61,605 nt of DNA, from contig JAGVXM010000001.1 in assembly GCA_018303785.1 (NCBI GenBank), positions 1-61,605 of the forward strand, written 5' to 3'. Positions 481 through 28,542 of the stretch are shown piece after piece. The stretch comes from Candidatus Pacearchaeota archaeon. GTDB lineage: Archaea > Nanobdellota > Nanobdellia > Pacearchaeales > GW2011-AR1. A program made the translations under genes and the position numbers. The stretch's first letter is position 1. Each line of letters starts with the position of its first letter. Below the pieces are notes generated by a model. It searched no databases and was not told the origin of the DNA. It worked only from the letters and a program-made list of their open reading frames with translations.

Positions 481-503
481 AAAAACTTTTCCGTAAAGTT
501 TTT
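481..503 (-). other. Perfect 9-bp hairpin in the 16S 5' leader
   Basis: aaaaacttt-tccgt-aaagttttt lies about 20 nt upstream of the 16S 5' end. Any role in processing is speculative. Confidence 0.2.
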
Positions 504-774
504 GCTAAAAATCCTCCATACTGCTATAATTTCCACAATACAAAATTGTTAGAATTGACGAGATAACTATGACTACTCTACTACATCCTACCTAAACGAC
601 GTTAAGGTAATCATCCCAGTTAATCTAATTAACATTTTATAAAAAATTATCATCCTCAGGATATATAAACGTTTCTATTATTTTTTTAATTTTGTCGAAC
701 AGAAATAACATGAAAATCGTCGGAAAATTAATTTAGTTAGAGTTTATTATCAACAAGAAAAATTTATCGAAAAT

Positions 775-788
775 TTTATCGTCGATAA
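775..788. repeat. 14-nt palindromic motif TTTATCGTCGATAA (copy 1)
   Basis: The identical 14-mer recurs at 28386-28399. Half-site-like strings lie at 763-770 (tttatcga) and 716-723 (atcgtcgg). Confidence 0.5.
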
Positions 789-802
789 ATTAAATAATAA
801 TA

Positions 803-810
803 TTTATAAA
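803..810 (+). promoter_or_regulatory. TATA box (TTTATAAA) 28 nt upstream of ATG 831
   Basis: The same TATA-to-ATG spacing (28-30 nt) recurs at more than 12 genes in the window. This implies a leaderless transcript. Confidence 0.45.
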
Positions 811-830
811 GATAAACTATTAACAAATTT

Positions 831-1607
831 ATGACAGATTATCTTTTTACAGAACGACAGGAAACAAGATTAATGGAAATCGTCTCGTTATTAGCAAAAT
901 ACCCGGAGATAAGATCAATGACAGATTACGATAACAAATTTGATTTTACACTTGATGAAATTAAAAGAGAATTTGCTGGCAGTGTCGATGATTTATTAGA
1001 TATTTTCCCAAAAAGTCCTGAACCAAAAAAAATTAGGAATGAAAGATTAGAAATGTTAGTTGGCAGTATTTCGTCAATCTTACCGATTGCACATGTGTTA
1101 ATGATAGCTGAACAAAAAGGATATTCTTTTACCTTTCCTGATAGCCATAATTCCAAAGAGATAGAATTTTTAATTATGAAATCAAATGCTTATGAAAAAT
1201 TAGTAGATTATCCATTGAAACCTAATCCTCCTATGGATGAATTATTACCAAAAAATACAATACTATTAGGAAAAATGAGAAAAAAATTTAAAGAAAGGGG
1301 TTGGAAGCGAAAAGAATTGGAGTTAGGAAATCCTGAATTGAAATTAATTGCCAGATTAGATAATGCCAATAGATCACAATATTTAATGGGGAATAATTAC
1401 GGTATTTCAACAGTTGTTGTTGAAGATGTCATGAGTGTTTTACATATTTGTGGTGAGAGATCAGTTTACACTATCAGTAATATAGAATTATGGTTTCCAG
1501 AAAATGAAAATTATCTTAACAGAGATGATTACGAATCACTTTTAGAATATTTAATCTCTGGAAAATATAATAAAAAATTAACTGAAAGATTATTCACGGC
1601 AGATTAA
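831..1607 (+). CDS. Hypothetical protein (258 aa)
   Basis: Long ORF with a TATA box at -28. I recognise no motif. Confidence 0.6.
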   Translation: MTDYLFTERQETRLMEIVSLLAKYPEIRSMTDYDNKFDFTLDEIKREFAGSVDDLLDIFPKSPEPKKIRNERLEMLVGSISSILPIAHVLMIAEQKGYSFTFPDSHNSKEIEFLIMKSNAYEKLVDYPLKPNPPMDELLPKNTILLGKMRKKFKERGWKRKELELGNPELKLIARLDNANRSQYLMGNNYGISTVVVEDVMSVLHICGERSVYTISNIELWFPENENYLNRDDYESLLEYLISGKYNKKLTERLFTAD

Positions 1608-1684
1608 TTTTTATCCTCCAAAACATTTATAACTACAATTTTTAAATAAACCGTATTTGGTGATAAAAATTTATGAAGCAAATC

Positions 1685-1692
1685 TTTATAAA
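1685..1692 (+). promoter_or_regulatory. TATA box (TTTATAAA) 29 nt upstream of ATG 1714
   Basis: The context is CTTTATAAA and the spacing is leaderless. Confidence 0.45.
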
Positions 1693-1713
1693 CAAACTTC
1701 CCAATAAATTTTT

Positions 1714-2502
1714 ATGGTTGAAAAAGTATCAGAAAAAACGTCATTGAAAAGTTTAGCTGAACAATTGAAAGAAAGAATTTCTAAAGATGAAATTGAACTA
1801 AAAGAAAAAAAATCTAAAGAAAAAGTTAAGGATATCTCTGATGAAGATATAGAGGAAATCTCAAAAAAAATTTCTAAAAAAGAAGTTGAAGAAGAAAAGA
1901 AAAGTATTTCATCAAAAGATGAAACATTATTGCCTTTGGAAGATTACATAAAATGTGCTGTTCACTTGGGTACAAAAGTAATAACTCCGAGCATGAGAAA
2001 ATATGTATATAAAAGACGTGCAGACGGATTAGCTGTAATTAATACGATTAAAATAGATCAAAAATTAAGAGAGACTATAGATTTTTTGAAAAATTACAAA
2101 CCGGAAACAATTTATCTTGTGTGCAAACGAGAAGCTGGTTGGAATGCGGCTAAAAAATTCGAGGAAGCAACAGGAATAAAAGTTTTCACAAAAAAATATT
2201 CTCCAGGTATAACTACAAATTTATCATTAAGCAATTTTTTCGAATCTGAATTAACAATGATATGCGATCCATGGATTGATAAAAACGCATTAAATGACAC
2301 TATCAAATTAAAAAAACCGATCATTGCGTTGTGTGACACAAACAATTACACTTTCGGCATAACTAAAATAATTCCTTGTAACAACAAATCTGGGAAATCT
2401 ATAGGCTGCATTTTATTTATTTTAGCGAGAGAATATTGCAAGCAAATAGGGAAGCCATTCAAATATTCTCTTGAACATTTTACAGGTCCTTTGGAAGCAT
2501 AA
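1714..2502 (+). CDS. rps2: 30S ribosomal protein uS2 with a ~70-aa K/E-rich N-terminal extension
   Basis: The core LLPLEDYIKCAVHLGTKVITPSMRKYVYKRRADGLAVINT ... IALCDTN is typical of archaeal S2. The first ~70 aa are low-complexity KE-rich sequence. Confidence 0.85.
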   Translation: MVEKVSEKTSLKSLAEQLKERISKDEIELKEKKSKEKVKDISDEDIEEISKKISKKEVEEEKKSISSKDETLLPLEDYIKCAVHLGTKVITPSMRKYVYKRRADGLAVINTIKIDQKLRETIDFLKNYKPETIYLVCKREAGWNAAKKFEEATGIKVFTKKYSPGITTNLSLSNFFESELTMICDPWIDKNALNDTIKLKKPIIALCDTNNYTFGITKIIPCNNKSGKSIGCILFILAREYCKQIGKPFKYSLEHFTGPLEA

Positions 2503-2544
2503 CAATTCGTAGTAACGATGAAGTATATTTCTAACAGCACATCA

Positions 2545-2552
2545 TTTATATT
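2545..2552 (+). promoter_or_regulatory. TATA-like box (TTTATATT) 29 nt upstream of ATG 2574
   Basis: The spacing is identical to the other leaderless promoters in the window. Confidence 0.4.
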
Positions 2553-2573
2553 TTCCAAAGACTTTGATTTAAC

Positions 2574-3131
2574 ATGAAAAAAATATGTATTTTATTTTTA
2601 TTGGTATCTACATTATTGCTCGCTACAGTTTTTGCAAATAGTTATTATTATGAGCGATATGATACTGATCGTGAATCTAGAGATACTCAATGGGTTTCAA
2701 TAATGCCTAAACAATGCAATAATCCATGGGAGTCGTCTAATGGAAATGAGAATTCACAGTTAAGAAATTATTTAGAAAAAAAAGATATCCGAGCATATTC
2801 TATAGTTAAAATAAAAAAAGACATAATCACTTGTTCTGCATGTAATTGTCCTCGAGGAGACACAATTTATATTTTAATTGATGAAGACGATTTCAAAAAA
2901 ATAAACAAGCTTGGATTCATGAAATCTGCTTCACCGAATTACTCAATAGAAAAGGAAAGAAATAATTTTAATAGAAATTTTAATCATAAATTTAGATCAA
3001 GATTTGAAACTGAATTTTTTAAAAAATATTTTCCAACAAGAACTCCAATAAACAAAATGCATGAATTTACCATGTGTTATGAATTTTACGACGGCATTAA
3101 AATGCAAAATAGATGCATCAAATTACCTTAG
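2574..3131 (+). CDS. Secreted or membrane-anchored hypothetical protein (185 aa)
   Basis: It has an N-terminal hydrophobic signal-like segment (MKKICILFLLVSTLLLATVFA) and several Cys residues. Confidence 0.6.
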   Translation: MKKICILFLLVSTLLLATVFANSYYYERYDTDRESRDTQWVSIMPKQCNNPWESSNGNENSQLRNYLEKKDIRAYSIVKIKKDIITCSACNCPRGDTIYILIDEDDFKKINKLGFMKSASPNYSIEKERNNFNRNFNHKFRSRFETEFFKKYFPTRTPINKMHEFTMCYEFYDGIKMQNRCIKLP

Positions 3132-3370
3132 TTAATTATTTTTTTAAATCCTTTAATTACATGTAATCGATTTTGAATATTCTTAAAAATATCTTCCAAT
3201 TCATCAGTTTTAAATTCAATGATTCCTGAACTTTCAGCACCTCTAAAACAAATCAAAATTCGCTCTTCCGTTGGATCCATACCTTCTTTAATAATAACTT
3301 CTTTAACGTCGCCTTGAGATTCAACACGCAGAGGTTTGTTAGACTTAATTTTTTTTATTTTGGTAATCAT
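3128..3370 (-). CDS. Hypothetical small protein (80 aa)
   Basis: The ORF fills the gap between neighbouring genes. I recognise no motif. Confidence 0.4.
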   Translation of the reverse strand: MITKIKKIKSNKPLRVESQGDVKEVIIKEGMDPTEERILICFRGAESSGIIEFKTDELEDIFKNIQNRLHVIKGFKKIIN

Positions 3371-3423
3371 AATTATATCAGGTAATTAGCTTATATAAAA
3401 ATTTAGGATGTCAGAATTTTACA

Positions 3424-4815
3424 TCAAAAATTTTCGACACGCATTGACTTGTATCCAGATAACATTCCTAAAAATCTTTTTTCAATATTCTTAATGAATT
3501 CATCAAGTTTAAATTTTTTAACCTCTCTAACTTCTCGGACGCCTCGCTGAATAAATAATGCGACTAGTAACCTTAGTATAAAACTTGCGATAAATAAGAT
3601 AATAACTGCTTTAACTCCAAAAAAATGCGGATAATTCGACGATAAATAACCGCCCAATACTGCACCAAAAAAAGCGCCCAATGAATTTATTATATTAAAA
3701 TATGCAATGCAAAACATCATTTTTTGTTTTGTTACTGCATCATAAATAAACATAGAAGCCGATAGATTAAATCCCGCCCAAACCAAACCTGCAAATAATT
3801 CAATAAAAATTAGAAAGCTAAAAAAAGCTAAAAAAGGAAGCATATTCAAATAAATGGAAAAAAACCACAATAATGGAATTAATGATATAAACAGAGAAGT
3901 AATTTTTATAACTTTTATATTTCCAAATTTATCGGCAAAATTGCCCCATAGAGGCAAAAATAAAATTGCGGATAAAACAGATGATACACTAATTATAGTA
4001 AATTGAAAATATGTCAATTTAAGATCTTCTAAAATATAGACGGTAATAAAAGGCCCTGCTAAAAAAGTTGCGAAAGACATAGCCGAGACAAGAAAGACAA
4101 ATCTTCCAAAATTATTATATAACATTCCTTTTATGAATTGCCGAAAAGTAAAATATGAAGCATCATCGTAAGTAAATCGCGGCTCATACTGTTTTAGAAT
4201 CAATAAGCTCGAAATAAATCGACCTAAAAAAGCAATGAAAAATATTATGAAAAAACCAATTAAAACTTTTCCGTTAGTAAAAAATGTTAAAATGAAACCT
4301 GCAATAAGCATGCTAATAATAGTGACCATGTTAACAATCATATTTCGTATACCGAAATATTTTCCAGAATTTTTTACGATAAGATCTTTCATCCAGGAAT
4401 TCCATGCTGGACCAGCGGATGAGCCAAAAATAATTAAAAGCGAATAAATGGTTAATAACATCCACGGTAAATATTCTCTTATCGCGGGGTAAAAATAATA
4501 TAAAACTCCGACGAAAATTAGAGGAATCCACAACAATGCCTGCATAAGGATGGCGAAAAAAACTAGTGATTTTCTTGATTTTTTTTTGATTAGCTGCGTG
4601 GTATAGAGTTGAGTTAAATTTCCCAAAAATCCAGGAAGCGTGCTGATCAAACCAACAATAAGATTTGTTGCTCCCAATGCAAGTGCATACGGTGTAATAT
4701 AGCGTACACCAAAACCTTCCATAACTCCAAAAAAAGATCCCTCTCTAATGCTTGTTTTTTCCGATTCCTTTATTTTTTTATGTTCATTCAACTCTTTTTG
4801 TTCAACTGTTTTCAT
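3424..4815 (-). CDS. MFS-type transporter (463 aa)
   Basis: It has about 12 hydrophobic helices. LWGNFADKFGNIKV resembles the MFS loop 2-3 motif. Confidence 0.7.
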   Translation of the reverse strand: MKTVEQKELNEHKKIKESEKTSIREGSFFGVMEGFGVRYITPYALALGATNLIVGLISTLPGFLGNLTQLYTTQLIKKKSRKSLVFFAILMQALLWIPLIFVGVLYYFYPAIREYLPWMLLTIYSLLIIFGSSAGPAWNSWMKDLIVKNSGKYFGIRNMIVNMVTIISMLIAGFILTFFTNGKVLIGFFIIFFIAFLGRFISSLLILKQYEPRFTYDDASYFTFRQFIKGMLYNNFGRFVFLVSAMSFATFLAGPFITVYILEDLKLTYFQFTIISVSSVLSAILFLPLWGNFADKFGNIKVIKITSLFISLIPLLWFFSIYLNMLPFLAFFSFLIFIELFAGLVWAGFNLSASMFIYDAVTKQKMMFCIAYFNIINSLGAFFGAVLGGYLSSNYPHFFGVKAVIILFIASFILRLLVALFIQRGVREVREVKKFKLDEFIKNIEKRFLGMLSGYKSMRVENF

Positions 4816-4817
4816 TT

Positions 4818-4848
4818 TTCACTCTGACGCACGATGACAAAGAGTGAA
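4818..4848. promoter_or_regulatory. Inverted repeat TTCACTCT-N15-AGAGTGAA abutting the MFS start codon
   Basis: The 8-bp arms span 4818-4825 and 4841-4848. They lie between a minus-strand TATA (4853-4860) and ATG 4815, which is an operator-like position. Confidence 0.3.
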
Positions 4849-4986
4849 TTTTTATTTAAAAATCTAACTTTGCTAAATTTTGTCAATAGAAATGTGAAAA
4901 CATTTATAAAAGGTCAGATTGTTTTCCTAAAAACCTAAATATTTAAAAATGGTTTTAAATTTAATAAATTGCAAGGAGGTTATAAT

Positions 4987-5142
4987 ATGGGTAAGGAAAT
5001 AATTATTGACAACGACGAAGACAGTGATGAAGACAGTGATGACGACGAAGAAGATGAAGAAATTGAAAAAGTCTCGGAAGAATTAGAAGATGATTCTGAT
5101 GATGATGAAGACGAAGACGAGGAAGAAGAAGGGACGATTTAG
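4987..5142 (+). CDS. Hyper-acidic 51-aa protein (MGKEIIIDNDEDSDEDSDDDEEDEEIEKVSEELEDDSDDDEDEDEEEEGTI)
   Basis: It is below the ORF-track size cut-off. GGAGGT (4975-4980) sits 6 nt upstream of the ATG, a TATA-like ATTTAAAA lies at 4941-4948 and a T-run follows the stop. Confidence 0.5.
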   Translation: MGKEIIIDNDEDSDEDSDDDEEDEEIEKVSEELEDDSDDDEDEDEEEEGTI

Positions 5143-5204
5143 TCTTTTTTTGATTCCATCATAATTCTTATTTTTATTTTTTAAAATTTTAAAGAAATTA
5201 GGCT

Positions 5205-6137
5205 TTATTCAAATAACAAAGTTTCATTCAAATGATCATACGAGATCTTATTGACCCCACGGATAATATAATCACTTTGAAGGGCAAATCCTAAATTTTC
5301 TCCAACTATTTTAAAATTATTTATTCCAACAACTTTTCCGTCAGAATTAATCAATGGTCCGCCGGAATTTCCAGGATTAAGCGCAGCATCAGTTTGTATG
5401 TAAGCAGGCAGTTCATTTGCACCAAATCTATTTTTTCCAGAAACTATTCCTTCAGAAACAGAAAATGATAATCCTAAAGGATTACCAATCGCAATTACTT
5501 TGTCTCCTAAATTTACATTCGATATATCTTCAAATTCAAGATTTTCGTATTCTCCATCAATTTTCAATAATGCAAGATCTAAATTAGCGTCGTAACCAAC
5601 TAATCTCATAGATTTTTTCTCTCGATTTGATGTTAGTGCATTGGCATAAATTGCATCAACCAAAACATGTGCATTCGTTACAACATAACCGTCAGATGTA
5701 ATAATGAATCCAGTTCCTTGAGCAGAGTTAGTAGTTATTGTAACAACAGAATCAACTGTATCTTCAATAATTCCAGAAAAATCAGCGCTTGTTTGTGCTT
5801 TGATGGAGCTAATTTCATCATTAAGCCCTTTTTCCAAATCAAGAACAGCCCCACTCAATTCAGAAATTTTAGACCGAACATCAGCAGTATTCACATCTAT
5901 TTTTTTATTCAACGTTTTTTCATATGTATCCAAAGCTATTGACAATTCATTTAGTTTTGTCCATAAAACTACCGTAAATATTAGCTGTAAAAAAAATAAA
6001 AAAATTAAAAGCGCTAAAATATGAGTAAAATATTTTTGCGAGACATCTTTTTCGCGGTGAATAACAATTCGTCTAGCCATTGCTAATGAAGGAAAATTTA
6101 ATTTAAATAGTTTAGCAAAGGTGTATTTTATTCCCAT
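5205..6137 (-). CDS. Membrane-anchored trypsin-like serine protease (S1C/HtrA-like, no PDZ domain)
   Basis: The triad contexts are TNAHVL, DLALLKI and GNSGGPLIN. There is an N-terminal TM helix. Confidence 0.8.
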   Translation of the reverse strand: MGIKYTFAKLFKLNFPSLAMARRIVIHREKDVSQKYFTHILALLIFLFFLQLIFTVVLWTKLNELSIALDTYEKTLNKKIDVNTADVRSKISELSGAVLDLEKGLNDEISSIKAQTSADFSGIIEDTVDSVVTITTNSAQGTGFIITSDGYVVTNAHVLVDAIYANALTSNREKKSMRLVGYDANLDLALLKIDGEYENLEFEDISNVNLGDKVIAIGNPLGLSFSVSEGIVSGKNRFGANELPAYIQTDAALNPGNSGGPLINSDGKVVGINNFKIVGENLGFALQSDYIIRGVNKISYDHLNETLLFE

Positions 6138-6184
6138 AAACTTTATATAATATCTGGAGTTTTCATATATATCCAGAGGTTTTC

Positions 6185-9100
6185 ATGAATACTAAAAGAG
6201 GTCCATTAGGAGGTCTTATCGGAGATGCAGCAAAAAATTTTAATGCGATTAAAGATAATGTAAATGATCGAAGTGGACTAACACCGGAGTCCCTCGCGGA
6301 ATATAAACCAATTCAAGTTCCTTCATCGGATCAGATTAAACAAAAAACAATTTCTTTTCAATCTCAATCTCCTCAAAGAGTTCCAGAGTCGCATGAAAGT
6401 TTTGTCAAGTGGTTTTCAGAACTAAACCATAAAGATGTAAAAATTGCCGGAGGTAAGGGAGCAAGTTTAAGTGAAATGTATAATGCGAAATTTCCTGTTC
6501 CTCCAGGATTTATGATCACCGCACAATCATTTGATTATTTTCTAACTAAAACGAATGTAAAGGAAAAAATCAAGGATATAATAAAAAAAGTTGATTTAGA
6601 GAATACCGAGGAGTTAACCAATGTATCAAAAGAAATCAGATTAATTATTGACAATTTAACACTCCCAGAAAATCTACAACAGGAAATTTTAGAAGCATAC
6701 AGCATTCTAAGCACAGAAAAAGTTAATTCTCACGTCTCAAGTAATGCAATGCAAATTTTGAAAAATTCTCGAGAACCGGCGTTTGTTTCAGTCAGAAGTT
6801 CGGCAACAACAGAGGATTTAGTTGATGCAAGTTTTGCTGGACAACAAGAAACATTTCTAAACGTAAAAGGTGAACGAAATTTAATTGAAAACGTAAAAAG
6901 ATGTTTCTCTTCTTTGTACACGCCGCGTGCAATTTATTATCGAGCACGAAAAGGATTCACCGAAGATCAGGCTCTATTAGCGGTTGTCGTACAAAAGATG
7001 ATTGATAGTGAAAAATCCGGAGTTGTTTTTTCAAAAGATCCGATGAATGCAAGCGATAATATAATTTTAGAAGCAGTTTTCGGATTAGGTGAGGGAATTG
7101 TTTCCGGAATGATAAATCCAGATCACTATGCAGTATCAGCAGATCTAGAAATTAAGAGCGTAAAAGTTTCTGAAAAAAAAGTTGCGATTGTACGAGATTC
7201 ATCAGGGAGAAACGAAATTGTAAGACTGAATCAAGCAAAAGCAACAAGACAAGTTATGTCTCAGGCTGAAATTTTAGATGTAGCTCATTATGCACTAAGG
7301 TTAGAAAAACATTATGAGAAGCCGCAGGATATCGAGTTTGCAATTGAAGGGGGGAAAACTTATATTATTCAATCCCGACCAATTACGACGATTGGCAAGA
7401 AATTAGAAGCTAATAAATTATTAGCAGGAAATGTTTTATTAGAAGGTAGAAGTGCAAGTCCAGGAATTGGCGTTGGGCCAGTTAAAATAATTCATTCCAT
7501 GGCAGATCTTCCAAAAATAAAAAAAGGAGATGTTTTAGTTACTCAGATGACTAATCCGGATATGGTTGTTGCGATGCAAAAGTCATCGGCAATAGTTACT
7601 GATGAAGGAGGAATGACAAGTCATGCAGCAATTGTTTCGAGAGAAATGGGAATTCCATGTATTGTTGGAACTGATAAAGCAACAAAAATTCTAACCAATG
7701 GAATGATGATAACCGTTGATGGTTCTTCAGGAAAAGTCTATGAAGGAGAAGTTTCTGAATCCAAAGCAGTTGAAATTAAGCAGGCAGTTGAAACTGAAAG
7801 AATTAAATTAAAAGTTATTGTTGACCTTCCTGATTTTGCTGAAAGAGCAGCACTATCTGGCATTAAACATGTTGGTTTAACACGATTAGAAGGGATTATT
7901 GCAAGTATGAAAAAACATCCACTGCAATACGAACGCGAAAATAATTTAGATGAATATTCTAAAAATATTTACGACGGAATTAAAAAAATTGCCTTTTTTT
8001 TTGAATCTATGTGGATTCGTGCAAGCGACATTAGGACTGATGAATATAGCTCGCTAACAGGCTCCCCAGAAAAAGAAATTAACCCTATGTTAGGATTTCA
8101 TGGAATTAGATTTAGTTTAAAGCATCCAGGTATTTTAAAAGCGGAATTAGAAGCTATTAAAAAAGTAGCAATAGAAAATCCAAAAAAGAAATTTGGCATA
8201 ATGTTTCCTCAAGTAATAACTATAGAAGAAGTTAAAGAAGCGAAAAAATATTTTGATGAAGTTAAGACGGAAAATATGGAATTTGGCGTTATGATAGAAA
8301 CACCTGCAGCAGTACAAATAATCGAAAGCATAGCTGATGAAGTAAATTTTATCTCCTTCGGTACAAATGACCTAACTCAATTTACCTTAGCCGTAGATAG
8401 AAATAATGAAGATGTTCAATATTTGTATAATGAATTACATCCGGCTATTTTTTCACAAATTAACAAAGTTATTCATACTTGTAGAATAAAAAAAGTACTG
8501 ACAAGTATTTGCGGCCAGGGAGGAAGCAAAAAAGAAATGGTTGAATATCTGTTTAGGAAAGGAATTAACAGTATCTCAGTTAATGCCGACGCTGCATATG
8601 ATGTTTCCATGTTGATAAAAAATTTAGAAGACGAATGGAAGAGAAAAAAAGAAGAAGAAATTAAAATGAAGGAAGAAAATTTAAATCAAATAAAAAATAA
8701 TCAGCAAATTCAATGGAATAAAAAAGGAAATATAAATTTAAATCCGCAGAATAATAATAATAATAATAATTTTCAATTAAATAAACAAAATTTGGTAAAT
8801 AACGGTCAGAATTTGCAAAGCAATCAAAATATATCCAATTCTCCTCAAGGAATATTAAGTAACAAACAAATTTCTGCGGAAAAATTAGGGGCTGAAGTGC
8901 AGGAATTCGAAGAGAACATAGGCCCCGTTGAACCTTTTAATAATTTAGGAAGAATAGAAAAAGTTGCTGAACAAATTCATCAAAATGTCGAGATGCATAA
9001 TGAGGAAGATGTAGAAAAAATGCATGAATATGAGGCCAGCATTAAAGTAGATGATGAAATCATAAGTGAAAACTCCGTTGATGCAGATATTCCCGCAGTT

Positions 9101-25830: not shown

Positions 25831-25941
25831 TTTAATTTTGTTGTTCAGAGGAATCATCTTTTTGGTTTTCTACTTCTTCCTCTGTCTGTTCCTCTGAAGT
25901 TTCTTCAGAAACTTCTTCGGAGTTTTGGTTTTCTTCTTCCA
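25831..25941 (-). CDS. Possible 36-aa acidic mini-ORF (MEEENQNSEEVSEETSEEQTEEEVENQKDDSSEQQN)
   Basis: It is below the ORF-track cut-off and I saw no clear promoter. Confidence 0.2.
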
Positions 25942-26048
25942 TAATCAAACATATAAATGAAGATATAAAAATGTTTGTTTAGTTGAATAATTTCTAATTA
26001 TTTAGCCTAATAAAGCACCAAAATTCTGTCATTTATCTCTGTCAAAAA

Positions 26049-26077
26049 ACGCCCCCACGATTACTTAATCCTGAGGA
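26049..26077. repeat. att-like copy A of the tRNA-Arg 3' end (ACGCCCCCACGA) followed by the direct repeat ACTTAATCCTGAGGA
   Basis: 26049-26060 matches 28407-28418 at 12/12 positions. 26063-26077 matches 26712-26726 at 14/15. Confidence 0.6.
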
Positions 26078-26140
26078 TTAAATCTCCAACTTTTTCCTAG
26101 AGATATAAAGAAATAGGTGAGTTGTGATAATTATTTTATG

Positions 26141-26392
26141 TTATCTATCATAAATATTCTTGCGATGACCAACTTTCAGGACTTGCAAAGTGTTTTGTTC
26201 GATAGCAAAAATAACTCTGTAATCTCCAATCCTTAATCTAAAATCATTGCTCCCTTTTAATCTTTTGATATCTTTAGAAAAAGGATTTTCAGATAATTCT
26301 TCAACTTTCTTAAAAATTCTTCTAGTTATAGGGGGCTCAAGTTTATTTAAAGAGTCGTATGCTTTTTCGTCCCAAACTATCTTAAAGGACAT
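26141..26392 (-). CDS. relE: RelE/ParE-family toxin
   Basis: It is 83 aa with FRLRIGDYRVIFAIEQNTLQVLKVGHRKNIY. Its start overlaps the antitoxin stop. Confidence 0.8.
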   Translation of the reverse strand: MSFKIVWDEKAYDSLNKLEPPITRRIFKKVEELSENPFSKDIKRLKGSNDFRLRIGDYRVIFAIEQNTLQVLKVGHRKNIYDR

Positions 26393-26610
26393 TATAATCC
26401 AAGCCTTTTCTTAGCTTCCTCTTGAGTTATAAACTTTCCAGACTTTACCCTCTTTCTAGCTTCTTCTATTTCCTGCTTTGTTTTTTCATTTAATTCTAAA
26501 TCGTCTTCTATCATTCTTTCTATAACCTCATTATATGTTTCTCTTTCCATCATTTTCATTTTATCTAAAACTGATTTTACATTATTTGATATTTGTATTG
26601 TTGTCTTCAT
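26392..26610 (-). CDS. Cognate antitoxin (72 aa)
   Basis: It lies upstream of and overlaps relE. The N-terminal domain KTTIQISNNVKSVLDKMKMMERETYNEVIERMI has a paralogue at 58163. Confidence 0.7.
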   Translation of the reverse strand: MKTTIQISNNVKSVLDKMKMMERETYNEVIERMIEDDLELNEKTKQEIEEARKRVKSGKFITQEEAKKRLGL

Positions 26611-26711
26611 CTTATATTGCCTTATAATCTATTATAATAAGTTATATTTAAACTTTTCGCTAGTTGGTCGTAGAACCATAAACCGAAATTTAGGTAAGTG
26701 CCCCTTTAATA

Positions 26712-26742
26712 ACTTAATCCTAAGGAATAACGCCCCCACGAG
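26712..26742. repeat. Direct repeat ACTTAATCCTAAGGA followed by att-like copy B (ACGCCCCCACGAG)
   Basis: 26730-26742 is identical (13/13) to 28407-28419 at the tRNA-Arg 3' end. Confidence 0.65.
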
Positions 26743-26865
26743 ATGTTTAACCTTAAGTTAAGAATCTCACGATACATTTTAAGAATTTGTCGATGCTGAT
26801 AGTTTTTCACAAAATAAGTTTGTTAGAATTTTGGTTTGAGGTTAAACTTTGTCAAAAAGCGTTTA

Positions 26866-26880
26866 GTTACACGCTCCCGC
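26866..26880. repeat. GTTACACGCTCCCGC repeat (R1)
   Basis: Its first 13 nt recur at 28277-28289. ACGCTCCCGC recurs inverted, with one extra C, at 28366-28376. Confidence 0.5.
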
Positions 26881-26907
26881 ATTGTGAGGTTGGTTTAAAA
26901 AGGATTT

Positions 26908-28203
26908 TTATTTTGATTCTGCTCTTAATCTTGCATTATCTACAAATCCAATAGGAGTCCATAATCCTCTTAAGAATGTTGCATCGATTGTATTTCTACC
27001 TTGCTCATCATAATTAACACCCTTTCTAGCAAATTCTTCCAATGCTCTATAAACGGGTCTAGCACAATATCTTAATTCTCCAACCAATTGAGGATTCAAG
27101 TTTCCTTCAGAATCAAAATTATATCTATTTTGTTGTATCAAGCTTTGAACTCCCCTTTTATCAATTGCTACTTCATACATCATATCAGCTTTTCTTTTTA
27201 ATACTGATGGGTCGCTTGGTTCTCCTAGATTTTTATCTCCCAACACAGAAATTCCATATTGGAAAATTCTTTTCTTATATTCTTCTAATTGTTCCGCGTC
27301 TTTTGCTTCTTGATAGATTTCAGCAAATTTGTGTTCTATTCCTAAGGCTTTTTGAGTTTCACGAGATTTCTTTAAATCTTCGAGTAGAACATTTTCATAA
27401 AATTGTGCAACCGACTCCGCTGTTGATACCGTTAAAGCTGAATCCTGTGTTAAAAAATAAGGTAATCCATTTAACCTTGTAATCACAAAATTTAGCGCGT
27501 GACCCATTCCTTCATGTCCATATAATCTAATCAATTCTTTATCTCTAATATGTAATGTTCCCTCTTCTTTTGAAAAACAAATCGCAGGAATACTTACTGC
27601 AAGATTATTTGTTAATGGATGAAAGTAAGACCTATCTTGTGTCGTAGGGACTGCATCAATGTCTCTTATAAACGCTCCTACTTTAGTTAATCCTTGTAAA
27701 AATTTACCTAAAGTTTTATGGTATCTTTGTATATGTGCTCCTGCAAATTCCTCAACCTGTCTTCTTACGCTAGGAATATCTGATGCTAATGGAAGTTCAT
27801 ATCCTTCAATTTCTCTTGAATGAAATAGTCTCTCAACAGCTTCTTGCGTTTTTTCTTTGTTAGATTCTAACCAAGGTCTTAAAGAGCTAATGTCCTCTTT
27901 GGGAATTCCTAATATGTTTACAACAGTATCAAAATCATAAAGTCTTCCGCTTAATCTTTGGTCTAAATAAGCTGCCTCTCCATGTAACCTTCTTTTTAGT
28001 TCTGATTGTATTAATTGTTCTTGAGTTTGAGGATTTGTAGTTTCTGGTATAGCATTGGCAAGATTTTGCATAGATTCAACTAGTCTTTGAGCTTCTCTTG
28101 AAGGAGTTAAATGATACTTATCTGCGAACTTTTGCATTCTATCTAACTTCTTTAATAAGCCCTCAGCTTCTTTCATTGCCCTTTCTGTTTCTTCATTTAA
28201 CAT
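26908..28203 (-). CDS. Hypothetical protein (431 aa) with a HEGMGH metallopeptidase-like string
   Basis: LYGHEGMGHALNF has HExxxH spacing, close to the M32-type HEGGHA string as recalled. There is no other assignment. Confidence 0.6.
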   Translation of the reverse strand: MLNEETERAMKEAEGLLKKLDRMQKFADKYHLTPSREAQRLVESMQNLANAIPETTNPQTQEQLIQSELKRRLHGEAAYLDQRLSGRLYDFDTVVNILGIPKEDISSLRPWLESNKEKTQEAVERLFHSREIEGYELPLASDIPSVRRQVEEFAGAHIQRYHKTLGKFLQGLTKVGAFIRDIDAVPTTQDRSYFHPLTNNLAVSIPAICFSKEEGTLHIRDKELIRLYGHEGMGHALNFVITRLNGLPYFLTQDSALTVSTAESVAQFYENVLLEDLKKSRETQKALGIEHKFAEIYQEAKDAEQLEEYKKRIFQYGISVLGDKNLGEPSDPSVLKRKADMMYEVAIDKRGVQSLIQQNRYNFDSEGNLNPQLVGELRYCARPVYRALEEFARKGVNYDEQGRNTIDATFLRGLWTPIGFVDNARLRAESK

Positions 28204-28276
28204 ATAATTTACTACAAAATTATATTTTTAAACCTTTGTATTATCACTACTATGAAGTTAATAATAATATCTCGTG

Positions 28277-28289
28277 GTTACACGCTCCC
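28277..28289. repeat. GTTACACGCTCCC repeat (R2)
   Basis: It is a direct copy of 26866-26878. The adjacent ATCTCGTGG (28269-28277) is the inverse of CCACGAGAT in att copy B. Confidence 0.5.
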
Positions 28290-28365
28290 CAACCCCATAA
28301 ACCTAAAAAATTACCAAAATCCTCTATAAAAATCTCAATTTATTTTATCGTCAATTAAAAATCAT

Positions 28366-28376
28366 GCGGGGAGCGT
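28366..28376. repeat. Inverted copy GCGGGGAGCGT (R3)
   Basis: Its reverse complement ACGCTCCCCGC matches R1 ACGCTCCCGC apart from one extra C. Confidence 0.4.
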
Positions 28377-28385
28377 TAAAACAGC

Positions 28386-28399
28386 TTTATCGTCGATAA
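28386..28399. repeat. 14-nt palindromic motif TTTATCGTCGATAA (copy 2)
   Basis: It is identical to 775-788. A degenerate copy TTTATCGTCAAT lies at 28345-28356. Confidence 0.5.
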
Positions 28400-28407
28400 G
28401 GTCGGCA

Positions 28408-28481
28408 CGCCCCCACGAGGATTTGAACCCCGGTTTCAAGCTCCGCAAGCTCGCGTTCTATCCAGGCTGAACTATAAGGGC
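28408..28481 (-). tRNA. tRNA-Arg (anticodon GCG)
   Basis: The rc reads GCCCTTA-TA-GTTC..GAAC-G-CGAGC-TTGCGGA-GCTTG-AAAC-CGGGG-TTCAAAT-CCTCG-TGGGGGC-G. The cloverleaf folds by hand (acceptor stem with 2 G-U pairs) and no CCA is encoded. Confidence 0.85.
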
Positions 28482-28542
28482 ATATAATTTATAAAATATG
28501 AAGGTTTATAGCTTTAACGAAAAAAACTAACCAATATCATTC

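Follow-up and report, generated by a model that had tools for sequence, protein, structure and literature searches.

A probable accretion array of small recombinase-less cassettes at the 3' end of tRNA-Arg(GCG) in a groundwater DPANN archaeon

The cis-mobilizable elements (CIMEs) of Streptococcus are bacterial decayed integrative and conjugative or integrative and mobilizable elements (ICEs/IMEs) of several kb, which have attL and attR, lack integrase and transfer genes, and form tandem arrangements with elements that do bear an integrase at the 3' end of a tRNA gene (PMC5704250). In Dehalococcoides, several islands of 10-30 kb lie in tandem downstream of one small RNA gene, the transfer-messenger RNA gene ssrA; each is bounded by a ~20-bp repeat of the 3' end of this gene, and some are without the integration module, which is of the serine recombinase type (PMC3146451). 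Integrons and clusters of attC sites lacking integron-integrases (CALINs), including those of archaea, are arrays of small cassettes with one gene or a toxin-antitoxin (TA) pair, separated by conserved structured sites that are similar within a lineage; most arrays have no neighboring integrase, and TA systems and methyltransferases are frequent among their cargo (PMC9668308). Archaeal tRNA-integrating elements carry a Xer-like tyrosine recombinase next to attL at the tRNA 3' end, and structures are available for XerA (PDB 4a8e, 5hxy). We describe here a locus that shares features with each of these systems. It lies on a 61,605-nt contig (JAGVXM010000001.1) of a Candidatus Pacearchaeota archaeon, the whole of which we call the window, and consists of two small cassettes located downstream of a tRNA-Arg(GCG) gene and delimited by copies of its 3' end. 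We suggest that the locus is probably an accretion array, built by site-specific recombination of trans-mobilized cassettes at the 3' end of tRNA-Arg(GCG).

The source is a tiny groundwater archaeon of the Pacearchaeota/Woesearchaeota type, and the window is contig C46 of its 54-contig, 874-kb assembly, which is 87% complete. The genomes of DPANN archaea are tiny, the organisms rely on hosts, and their acquisition of accessory genes is poorly understood. Genomes are labeled with G (the present one is G000) and loci with L (e.g., L068 is G031:C69). The array is made up of the following features.

28407-28482, minus strand: tRNA-Arg(GCG), found with ARAGORN (Rfam RF00005, 55.6 bits)
28407-28419, minus strand: core copy 1, the last 12 nt of the tRNA and one trailing base, the proposed attachment site
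26743-28406, minus strand: proximal cassette with a 431-aa open reading frame (ORF), between core copies 1 and 2, with exact 13-mers at both bounds
26730-26742, minus strand: core copy 2 (13/13), the junction of both cassettes
26061-26729, minus strand: distal cassette, with an architecture common to 21 complete cassettes (671-2038 bp) of relatives
26049-26061, minus strand: core copy 3 (12/13, last base T), the distal boundary

The 13-mer ACGCCCCCACGAG spans one trailing base, the discriminator, seven 3' bases of the acceptor, and four bases of the T stem. The first-pass annotation of the window had reported that this 3' end recurs twice downstream of the tRNA, which is confirmed by the copies at 26730 and 26049. 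Its chance expectation is 0.06 copies, and three copies were found in none of 100 dinucleotide shuffles, which rules out a chance origin. Core copy 2 resembles the tRNA over 19/23 nt, reaching into the T loop, and the tRNA itself is intact alongside these distal direct repeats of its own 3' segment. The assembly contains exactly five copies of the 10-nt core GCCCCCACGA, three in the window and two on contig C22 (5318 and 6268). The annotation needs correction in that the core is not restricted to tRNA genes: two of the five copies, the C22 pair, flank a sister cassette away from a tRNA. The acceptor and T stems of tRNA-Arg(GCG) contain three G.U pairs with the G always on the 3' side, and the acceptor 3' strand TGGGGGC does not vary between species, while its 5' partner shows C/T substitutions that are accommodated as G.U pairs. 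A constant 3' strand paired with a variable 5' strand fits a history in which incoming elements would have repeatedly overwritten the 3' end; neutral drift explains it equally well.

In the tRNA sense, a T-run comes directly after core copy 3, as in a native tRNA trailer (compare the tRNA of the cassette-free G028), and a hairpin together with the acceptor strand resembles a tRNA minihelix. These observations could be taken to mean that the repeats are cis-acting RNA or transcription signals, that is, tRNA 3'-end mimics with a hairpin that act for example in processing or termination, rather than recombination scars. We regard this as highly improbable, because the cargo of such cassettes occurs in either orientation relative to the ends, their presence and context change between genomes, elements with an integrase share the same core, and the Rfam scan found no family in the region apart from the tRNA. 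A mir-59 match with 29 bits against a cut-off of 80 bits was discarded as noise.

The reading of the locus as a product of site-specific accretion is based on the fact that the repeats are non-random and nearly confined to cassette boundaries. Accretion at the tRNA is supported because arrays follow the same tRNA in G003, G005, G007, G030, and G065 and none is found where its 3' end differs, and mobilization in trans is plausible because integrase-bearing elements of relatives share the same core. Mobility is suggested by the same cargo in different contexts: the TA pair that most closely resembles that of the distal cassette, with amino acid identities of 84% (ParE toxin) and 96% (antitoxin) and a nucleotide identity of 84%, is the second cassette of an array in G069 beside a DEAD-box helicase gene, the window homologue of which is located 5 kb from the cassette. 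According to the mechanism we propose, two small recombinase-less cassettes would have been inserted successively into the 3' end of tRNA-Arg(GCG), each insertion leaving one 12-13-nt copy of the core. The joined attachment site, in a circle or a tandem, would comprise a palindrome, the core, a 4-nt spacer, and a palindrome, where the core equals the tRNA 3' end and palindrome plus spacer loosely mimic the T arm. The recombinase would be supplied in trans, and its likely source would be a tyrosine integrase carried by integrative elements of 5-7 kb that employ this core. The position of the crossover within the core, the identity of the integrase acting on the cassettes, and the continued mobility of the two cassettes of the window are what we infer from these comparisons.

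Downstream of tRNA-Arg(GCG), the relatives have the following arrangements.

G003: at least three core-bounded segments
G030: at least four core-bounded segments
G005: a single cassette of 0.96 kb, and a repeat of the tRNA end at +1024
G007: one cassette
G065: an integrase island, then one cassette

These segments bear out the proposal of the annotation that integration at the tRNA 3' end was repeated. In G028 and G010, where the 3' end of tRNA-Arg(GCG) is unlike the core, no cassettes were found, and a T-run or ordinary genes are present instead. The gene order around tRNA-Arg(GCG) is poorly conserved among the relatives; G064 shares the 5' side of the locus, and its contig stops 95 nt past the tRNA.

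Two observations on this tRNA may be added. The closest tRNA-Arg(GCG) is that of G028 (L056, G028:C8, 1382-1660), which is 92% identical and has a different 3' end. Its neighbor is homologous to the 120-aa ORF of the window, but the tRNA faces this gene from the opposite side and is thus inverted with respect to the window. Another type of tRNA-Arg(GCG), with the acceptor GGGCGAA...TTTGCCC, is present at L068 (G031:C69, ~1590-1690) and L071 (G035:C26); ~20 nt past it there is a degenerate tRNA-like copy, scoring under the Rfam tRNA threshold, which contains a long insert and has the cassette core at its end (TCGTGGGGGCA).

The cassettes belong to a wider family, for which we surveyed 49 genomes of the genus, 24 sampled genomes from other genera of the order, and public metagenome-assembled genomes (MAGs). 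The left end of the family (27-31 nt: core, 4 nt, palindrome) was found in 17 of the 49 genomes of the genus, whereas the 24 genomes outside it had none. Among the public MAGs, about 40 contained it, in 50 stretches; nearly all of these MAGs are DPANN archaea of the Nanoarchaeota type carrying the labels Pacearchaeota, Woesearchaeota, or Nanoarchaeota. The layout is core, 4-nt spacer, 17-nt palindrome TTAATCCTnAGGATTAA, conserved left end, 0.6-2 kb of cargo, conserved right end, palindrome, and core. With aligned boundaries, the consensus is A(C/T)GCCCCCACGA, TTAC, TTAATCCTAAGGATTAA, CTCCCCAACTTTTTCCTC for the left side and AGTTATTCGGTTTATGTAG plus 5 nt, TTAATCCTAAGGATTAA, TGCCCCCACGA(G) for the right side, and the spacer occurs as TTAC, TAAG, TAAC, or ATAG. 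The mean identity of 26 distinct right ends is 0.79; a value is given for right ends only, the left-end statistic being contaminated by matching of the palindrome on both strands. Each cassette carries a single gene or a TA pair, which may lie on either strand with respect to the ends; among this cargo are four S-adenosylmethionine (SAM) methyltransferases, a 2'-5' RNA ligase, a ChaN-like protein, MNT/DUF2204 nucleotidyltransferases, ParE with DUF7557, a racemase, a HAD hydrolase, and several unknowns.

A second type of end (CCACGAG ATGA TTAACCTTAGGTTAAG) occurs in 9 of the 49 genomes of the genus, with up to seven copies. The sister cassette of the same genome (C22:5316-6300; L003, L004, L007) is located between the SRP54 gene and a 264-aa ORF and is ordered as core, TTAC, palindrome, PemK/MazF toxin, DUF7557/VapB antitoxin, palindrome-like sequence, and core, a layout like that of the TA cassette in the window. 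The 264-aa ORF begins with a palindromic end of the second type, and the nearest tRNA is a tRNA-Gln at 2.6 kb that is unrelated to the core. The first-pass annotation had regarded the islands as either eroded or mobilized in trans. Mobilization in trans is plausible in view of the integrases found at the same core in G033, G031, G002, and G065, but the cassettes are not merely eroded islands: they form a conserved family with dedicated palindromic ends. The best explanation is that this family is specific to DPANN archaea of the Pacearchaeota/Woesearchaeota type, lineage-wide, and previously undescribed; we found no description of such cassettes in Pacearchaeota/Woesearchaeota in the literature, of which our search had incomplete coverage.

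Where two cassettes meet in tandem, the order is right end, palindrome, TGCCCCCACGA, TTAC, palindrome, and left end (L017, L090, L093, L015), and six further such junctions were recovered from metagenomes. If the crossover is in the core, this tandem junction would be the attachment site expected for a circular cassette. As a single strand, it folds into a stem of ~21 bp, the loop of which is made up of core plus spacer, together 15 nt (z of −3.7 and −4.4). There are also core-less junctions with a single palindrome (L022:5435, L023, L034) and, at four loci (L029, L092, L103, L109), cargo-less solo units composed of core, TTAC, palindrome, and core, of which that at L109 abuts tRNA-Arg(GCG). 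An alternative would be an integron-like capture, in which the true crossover takes place between one 17-nt palindrome and another, the core-spacer-palindrome-core unit is a docking platform, and the match to the tRNA marks only the origin of this platform. The solo units, the one-palindrome junctions, and the hairpin of the tandem junction are what such a process could leave; the orientation of the central palindrome base with respect to the cassette does not change, and the TA pairs and methyltransferases among the cargo are like those of integron cassettes (PMC9668308). However, the palindrome, with its 7-bp arms and 3-nt spacer, is too short to be a usual crossover site of a tyrosine recombinase, and the integrase element of G031 has the core alone on its distal side. 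A deletion between direct palindromes would yield solo units and single-palindrome junctions as well, and a resident integrase lies next to an array in only two genomes. We consider capture at the palindromes rather unlikely and a crossover in the core the better account. At L161 (an ERZ1292623 contig, 4475-4600), a palindrome-core-TTAC-palindrome junction is located 4 nt from the 3' end of a tRNA-Met, in a sense opposite to the tRNA-Arg arrangement.

As the first-pass annotation had stated, no recombinase gene is left in the islands: none is present within 26049-28406, and the only tyrosine recombinase of the assembly (PF00589) is a 283-aa Xer-like protein on C10. No serine recombinase of the assembly was above the cut-off. 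In relatives, tyrosine integrases of three lineages start 57-205 nt from the same core, at tRNA-Arg or beside cassettes. Their arrangements are as follows.

G033: cassette, core, 65 nt, 394-aa integrase reading away from the core
G031: 5.2-kb element of TCGTGGGTGCGT, 63 nt, integrase (54% identical to that of G033), other element genes, TCGTGGGGGCGT, rpl3
G030 and G065: close homologues of the G033-type integrase beside tRNA-Ser(TGA)
G002: 27%-identical integrase beginning 57 nt past tRNA-Arg(GCG)
G065: tRNA-Arg(GCG), a third, distant tyrosine recombinase (PF00589, 36.5 bits; 205 nt from the tRNA), two MORC-like ATPases, core, HAD cassette, core

The G031 element has a cassette end of the second type on its other side. 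The homologues beside tRNA-Ser(TGA) suggest that the choice of target varies within the G033-type lineage, and across the 50 public loci an integrase was found beside cassettes only in G033. The G033-type enzymes are Xer-like, with P. abyssi XerA as the best solved relative (2e-17), and have a C-terminal zinc ribbon; they reach 123 bits with the XerA model of NCBIfam (cut-off 220) and 42.6 bits with the integron integrase model TIGR02249 (cut-off 265). The island of G065 (L155, G065:C4:42400-52400, 484-6800) is 6.6 kb long and contains, at tRNA-Arg(GCG), a nucleotidyltransferase in addition to the distant recombinase; its two MORC-like proteins are GHKL ATPases (HATPase_c_3, Morc6_S5), and it may be a defense island.

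A transposase is another candidate for a recombinase acting in trans. The Y1 transposases of the IS200/IS605 insertion sequences recognize end hairpins and insert 3' of a short target such as TTAC. There are 11 Y1_Tnp matches in the assembly, the cassette ends carry hairpins, and TTAC precedes the left end, so the cassettes might be non-autonomous elements resembling palindrome-associated transposable elements (PATEs) or miniature inverted-repeat transposable elements (MITEs) that are moved by the IS200/IS605 transposase of the genome. However, the end hairpins of the resident IS200-like elements are unrelated to the cassette palindrome TTAATCCTnAGGATTAA or the end motifs, the spacer is variable, and a long specific direct repeat identical to the tRNA end is not a product of such transposition. 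Hence we rejected this mobilization, to which we assign next to no probability. The Y1 matches are located on C17, C35, C20, C51, and C30 and at the contig starts of C12, C22, and C11 of G000. The IS200-like copies are ~580 bp long with GC-rich end hairpins, and several lie at contig ends, suggesting that they fragment the assembly.

The preferred reading of trans-mobilized accretion can now be compared with the described systems. Like CIMEs, the cassettes of the window keep att-like repeats and are devoid of integration and transfer genes. The decay of a larger ICE/IME is not in evidence: we found no remnants of integration or transfer genes, and the conserved ends and single genes recur across ~40 MAGs. 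In contrast to CIMEs, the units described here are 0.7-2 kb long, carry one gene or a TA pair, and have dedicated conserved ends. They are also found in archaea in which conjugation is not known. Compared with the ssrA islands of Dehalococcoides, the cassettes are much smaller, are associated with tyrosine recombinases, and have palindromic ends.

Set beside integrons, the cassettes have no R''/L''...L'/R' attC, no GTT insertion point, and cargo in both orientations; the associated integrase is not IntI, and the core equals a tRNA 3' end. When the junction was read by eye for the attC R''(RYYYAAC)-L''...L'-R'(GTTRRRY), this was absent, and only AAC/GTT-like motifs in the wrong order were seen. 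No integron-type integrase was found either, as TIGR02249 stayed below its cut-off and the best NCBIfam match was the XerA model, also below its cut-off; nor are the cassettes co-oriented for expression from a platform promoter, since cargo lies on either strand. We therefore rejected a canonical integron, for its attC architecture is lacking, the integrase is not IntI-like, and the cargo faces both ways. With the archaeal tRNA islands the locus shares the distal direct repeats of a tRNA 3' segment and the intact tRNA; the cassettes of the window carry no integrase, whereas the elements of G031, G033, G065, and G002 do. The integrases of the relatives differ from XerA in the C-terminal zinc ribbon and the lower score (123 vs 220 bits). 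PATEs have end hairpins that match a resident TnpA element, and here the IS200-like ends differ. As for integrative mobile elements exploiting Xer (IMEX), in which a host Xer acts at an attachment site that resembles dif, the assembly has XerA as its sole tyrosine recombinase, and use of such a site by the cassettes is conceivable. The best reading of these comparisons is that the cassettes would operate like CIMEs or ssrA islands and, in size, cargo, and array form, resemble integrons, but are not canonical integrons.

The locus occurs in nine studies, and the stretch is present in 12 public groundwater and soil sequencing runs, all as assembled contigs; four of the runs were examined. In these, the unitigs break at 26051-26080, ~26850, 28221-28250, and 28435. 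The summed depth over 25872-26105 and 26574-26807 was ~470-490 in a groundwater metagenome, against ~16 in the flanks; this ~30-fold depth indicates that the cassette ends are highly repeated in the community. The breaks at cassette boundaries and the raised depth both speak for the accretion reading. In other contigs, the sequence leading into core copy 2 is the canonical right end of a different cassette. We set aside, as cross-organism matches, a link from 26604 to 28473 and joints whose sides measured 21-27 nt.

Several observations weigh against accretion of trans-mobilized cassettes at the tRNA. The assembled contigs revealed neither a circle junction nor an empty tRNA site of this strain, and the 87%-complete assembly has no integrase of the lineages found in relatives. 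Most family members, the C22 cassette included, are not within 4 kb of a tRNA, so the tRNA is not the sole home of the cassettes. Palindromes may also recombine with one another, or the DNA between them may be deleted, as the solo units and one-palindrome junctions suggest. Finally, the 431-aa gene of the proximal cassette looks like a secondary insertion into an empty frame, not like a simple cassette.

A broader proposal, which we put forward only tentatively as the less probable extension, is that DPANN archaea possess a second, non-integron cassette system. In such a system, single genes bounded by palindromes, with a core copied from tRNA-Arg(GCG), would be captured into arrays at this tRNA and at secondary sites and would be shuffled, emptied, and exchanged between species by zinc-ribbon Xer-like integrases acting in trans. 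If the accretion reading is true, recombinase-less miniature cassettes would be a route of gene flow in DPANN archaea analogous to integrons, with a core derived from a tRNA end. The family carries TA pairs, methyltransferases, and small enzymes in ~40 MAGs and accumulates at a single tRNA gene. For biochemistry, it offers candidate integrases and an attachment site that is defined and can be tested (palindrome, core, spacer, palindrome), and for annotation it would account for the tRNA-fragment repeats and contig breaks in these MAGs.

In the distal cassette, the order is spacer TTAC, palindrome, left-end motif, toxin and antitoxin genes, right-end motif (inverted, 26677-26688), and palindrome. 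Its features are listed below.

26065-26098: left-hand palindrome TTAATCCTGAGGATTAA and conserved left-end motif ATCTCCAACTTTTTCCT
26141-26392, minus strand: ParE/RelE-family toxin, 83 aa (Pfam ParE_toxin, 5e-10)
26392-26610, minus strand: DUF7557/VapB-like antitoxin, 72 aa (Pfam), with homologues that ride in cassettes of other genomes
26714-26730: right-hand palindrome TTAATCCTAAGGAATAA

The RelE/antitoxin pair recognized in the first-pass annotation is thus upheld by Pfam; with the RelE_StbE model of NCBIfam, the toxin reaches 25.5 bits, slightly below the cut-off of 27.9 bits. Related ParE/antitoxin pairs sit in cassettes of many genomes. The 15-nt inner direct repeat noted earlier (26063-26077 and 26712-26726) is real, but it is part of the 17-nt palindrome at 26065-26081 and 26714-26730.

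The proximal cassette contains the following features.

26743-26775, plus strand: variant palindromic end (PAL2 type), ATGT TTAACCTTAAGTTAA GAATCTCACG, directly after core copy 2
26867-26878, plus strand: 12-nt repeat TTACACGCTCCC, copy 1 of the two that box the 431-aa gene
26908-28203, minus strand: 431-aa protein with a HEGMGH (HExxH) motif in its translation, a putative zinc metallopeptidase
28278-28289, plus strand: 12-nt repeat TTACACGCTCCC, copy 2

The variant end at 26743-26775 is of the second type, and the proximal segment is thereby framed by a related cassette end. The 431-aa protein has no match in Pfam, NCBIfam, or PADLOC; its language-model (atlas) neighbors are predicted DUF885/M32-like metallopeptidases, which we take as a lead only. 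The protein had been called an orphan, a description contradicted by homologues with 71, 58, and 45% identity in 3 of the 48 other genomes of the genus. Their distribution is patchy, and no cores or cassette ends surround them in those three genomes, so that they yielded no second copy of this cassette. Within TTACACGCTCCC, the part ACGCTCCC is one base off the core and resembles a conserved motif of the cassette right ends. One metagenome contig links 26878 to 28306 through 26 other letters, omitting the 431-aa gene exactly between the TTACACGCTCCC copies. It has a depth of 3.7, compared with about 17, and its differences at 13/114 positions show that a relative or a paralogous locus is its source; it is a hint that the 431-aa gene entered an empty cassette frame.

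A further tRNA with a repeated 3' end is found at L081 (G067:C7:14997-18030, 1506-1680), where the last 11 nt of tRNA-Arg(TCT), ACTCCGGGCGT, are exactly repeated at +159. The repeat encloses an insert of only ~80 nt, and a 374-aa integrase is located on the other side of the tRNA.

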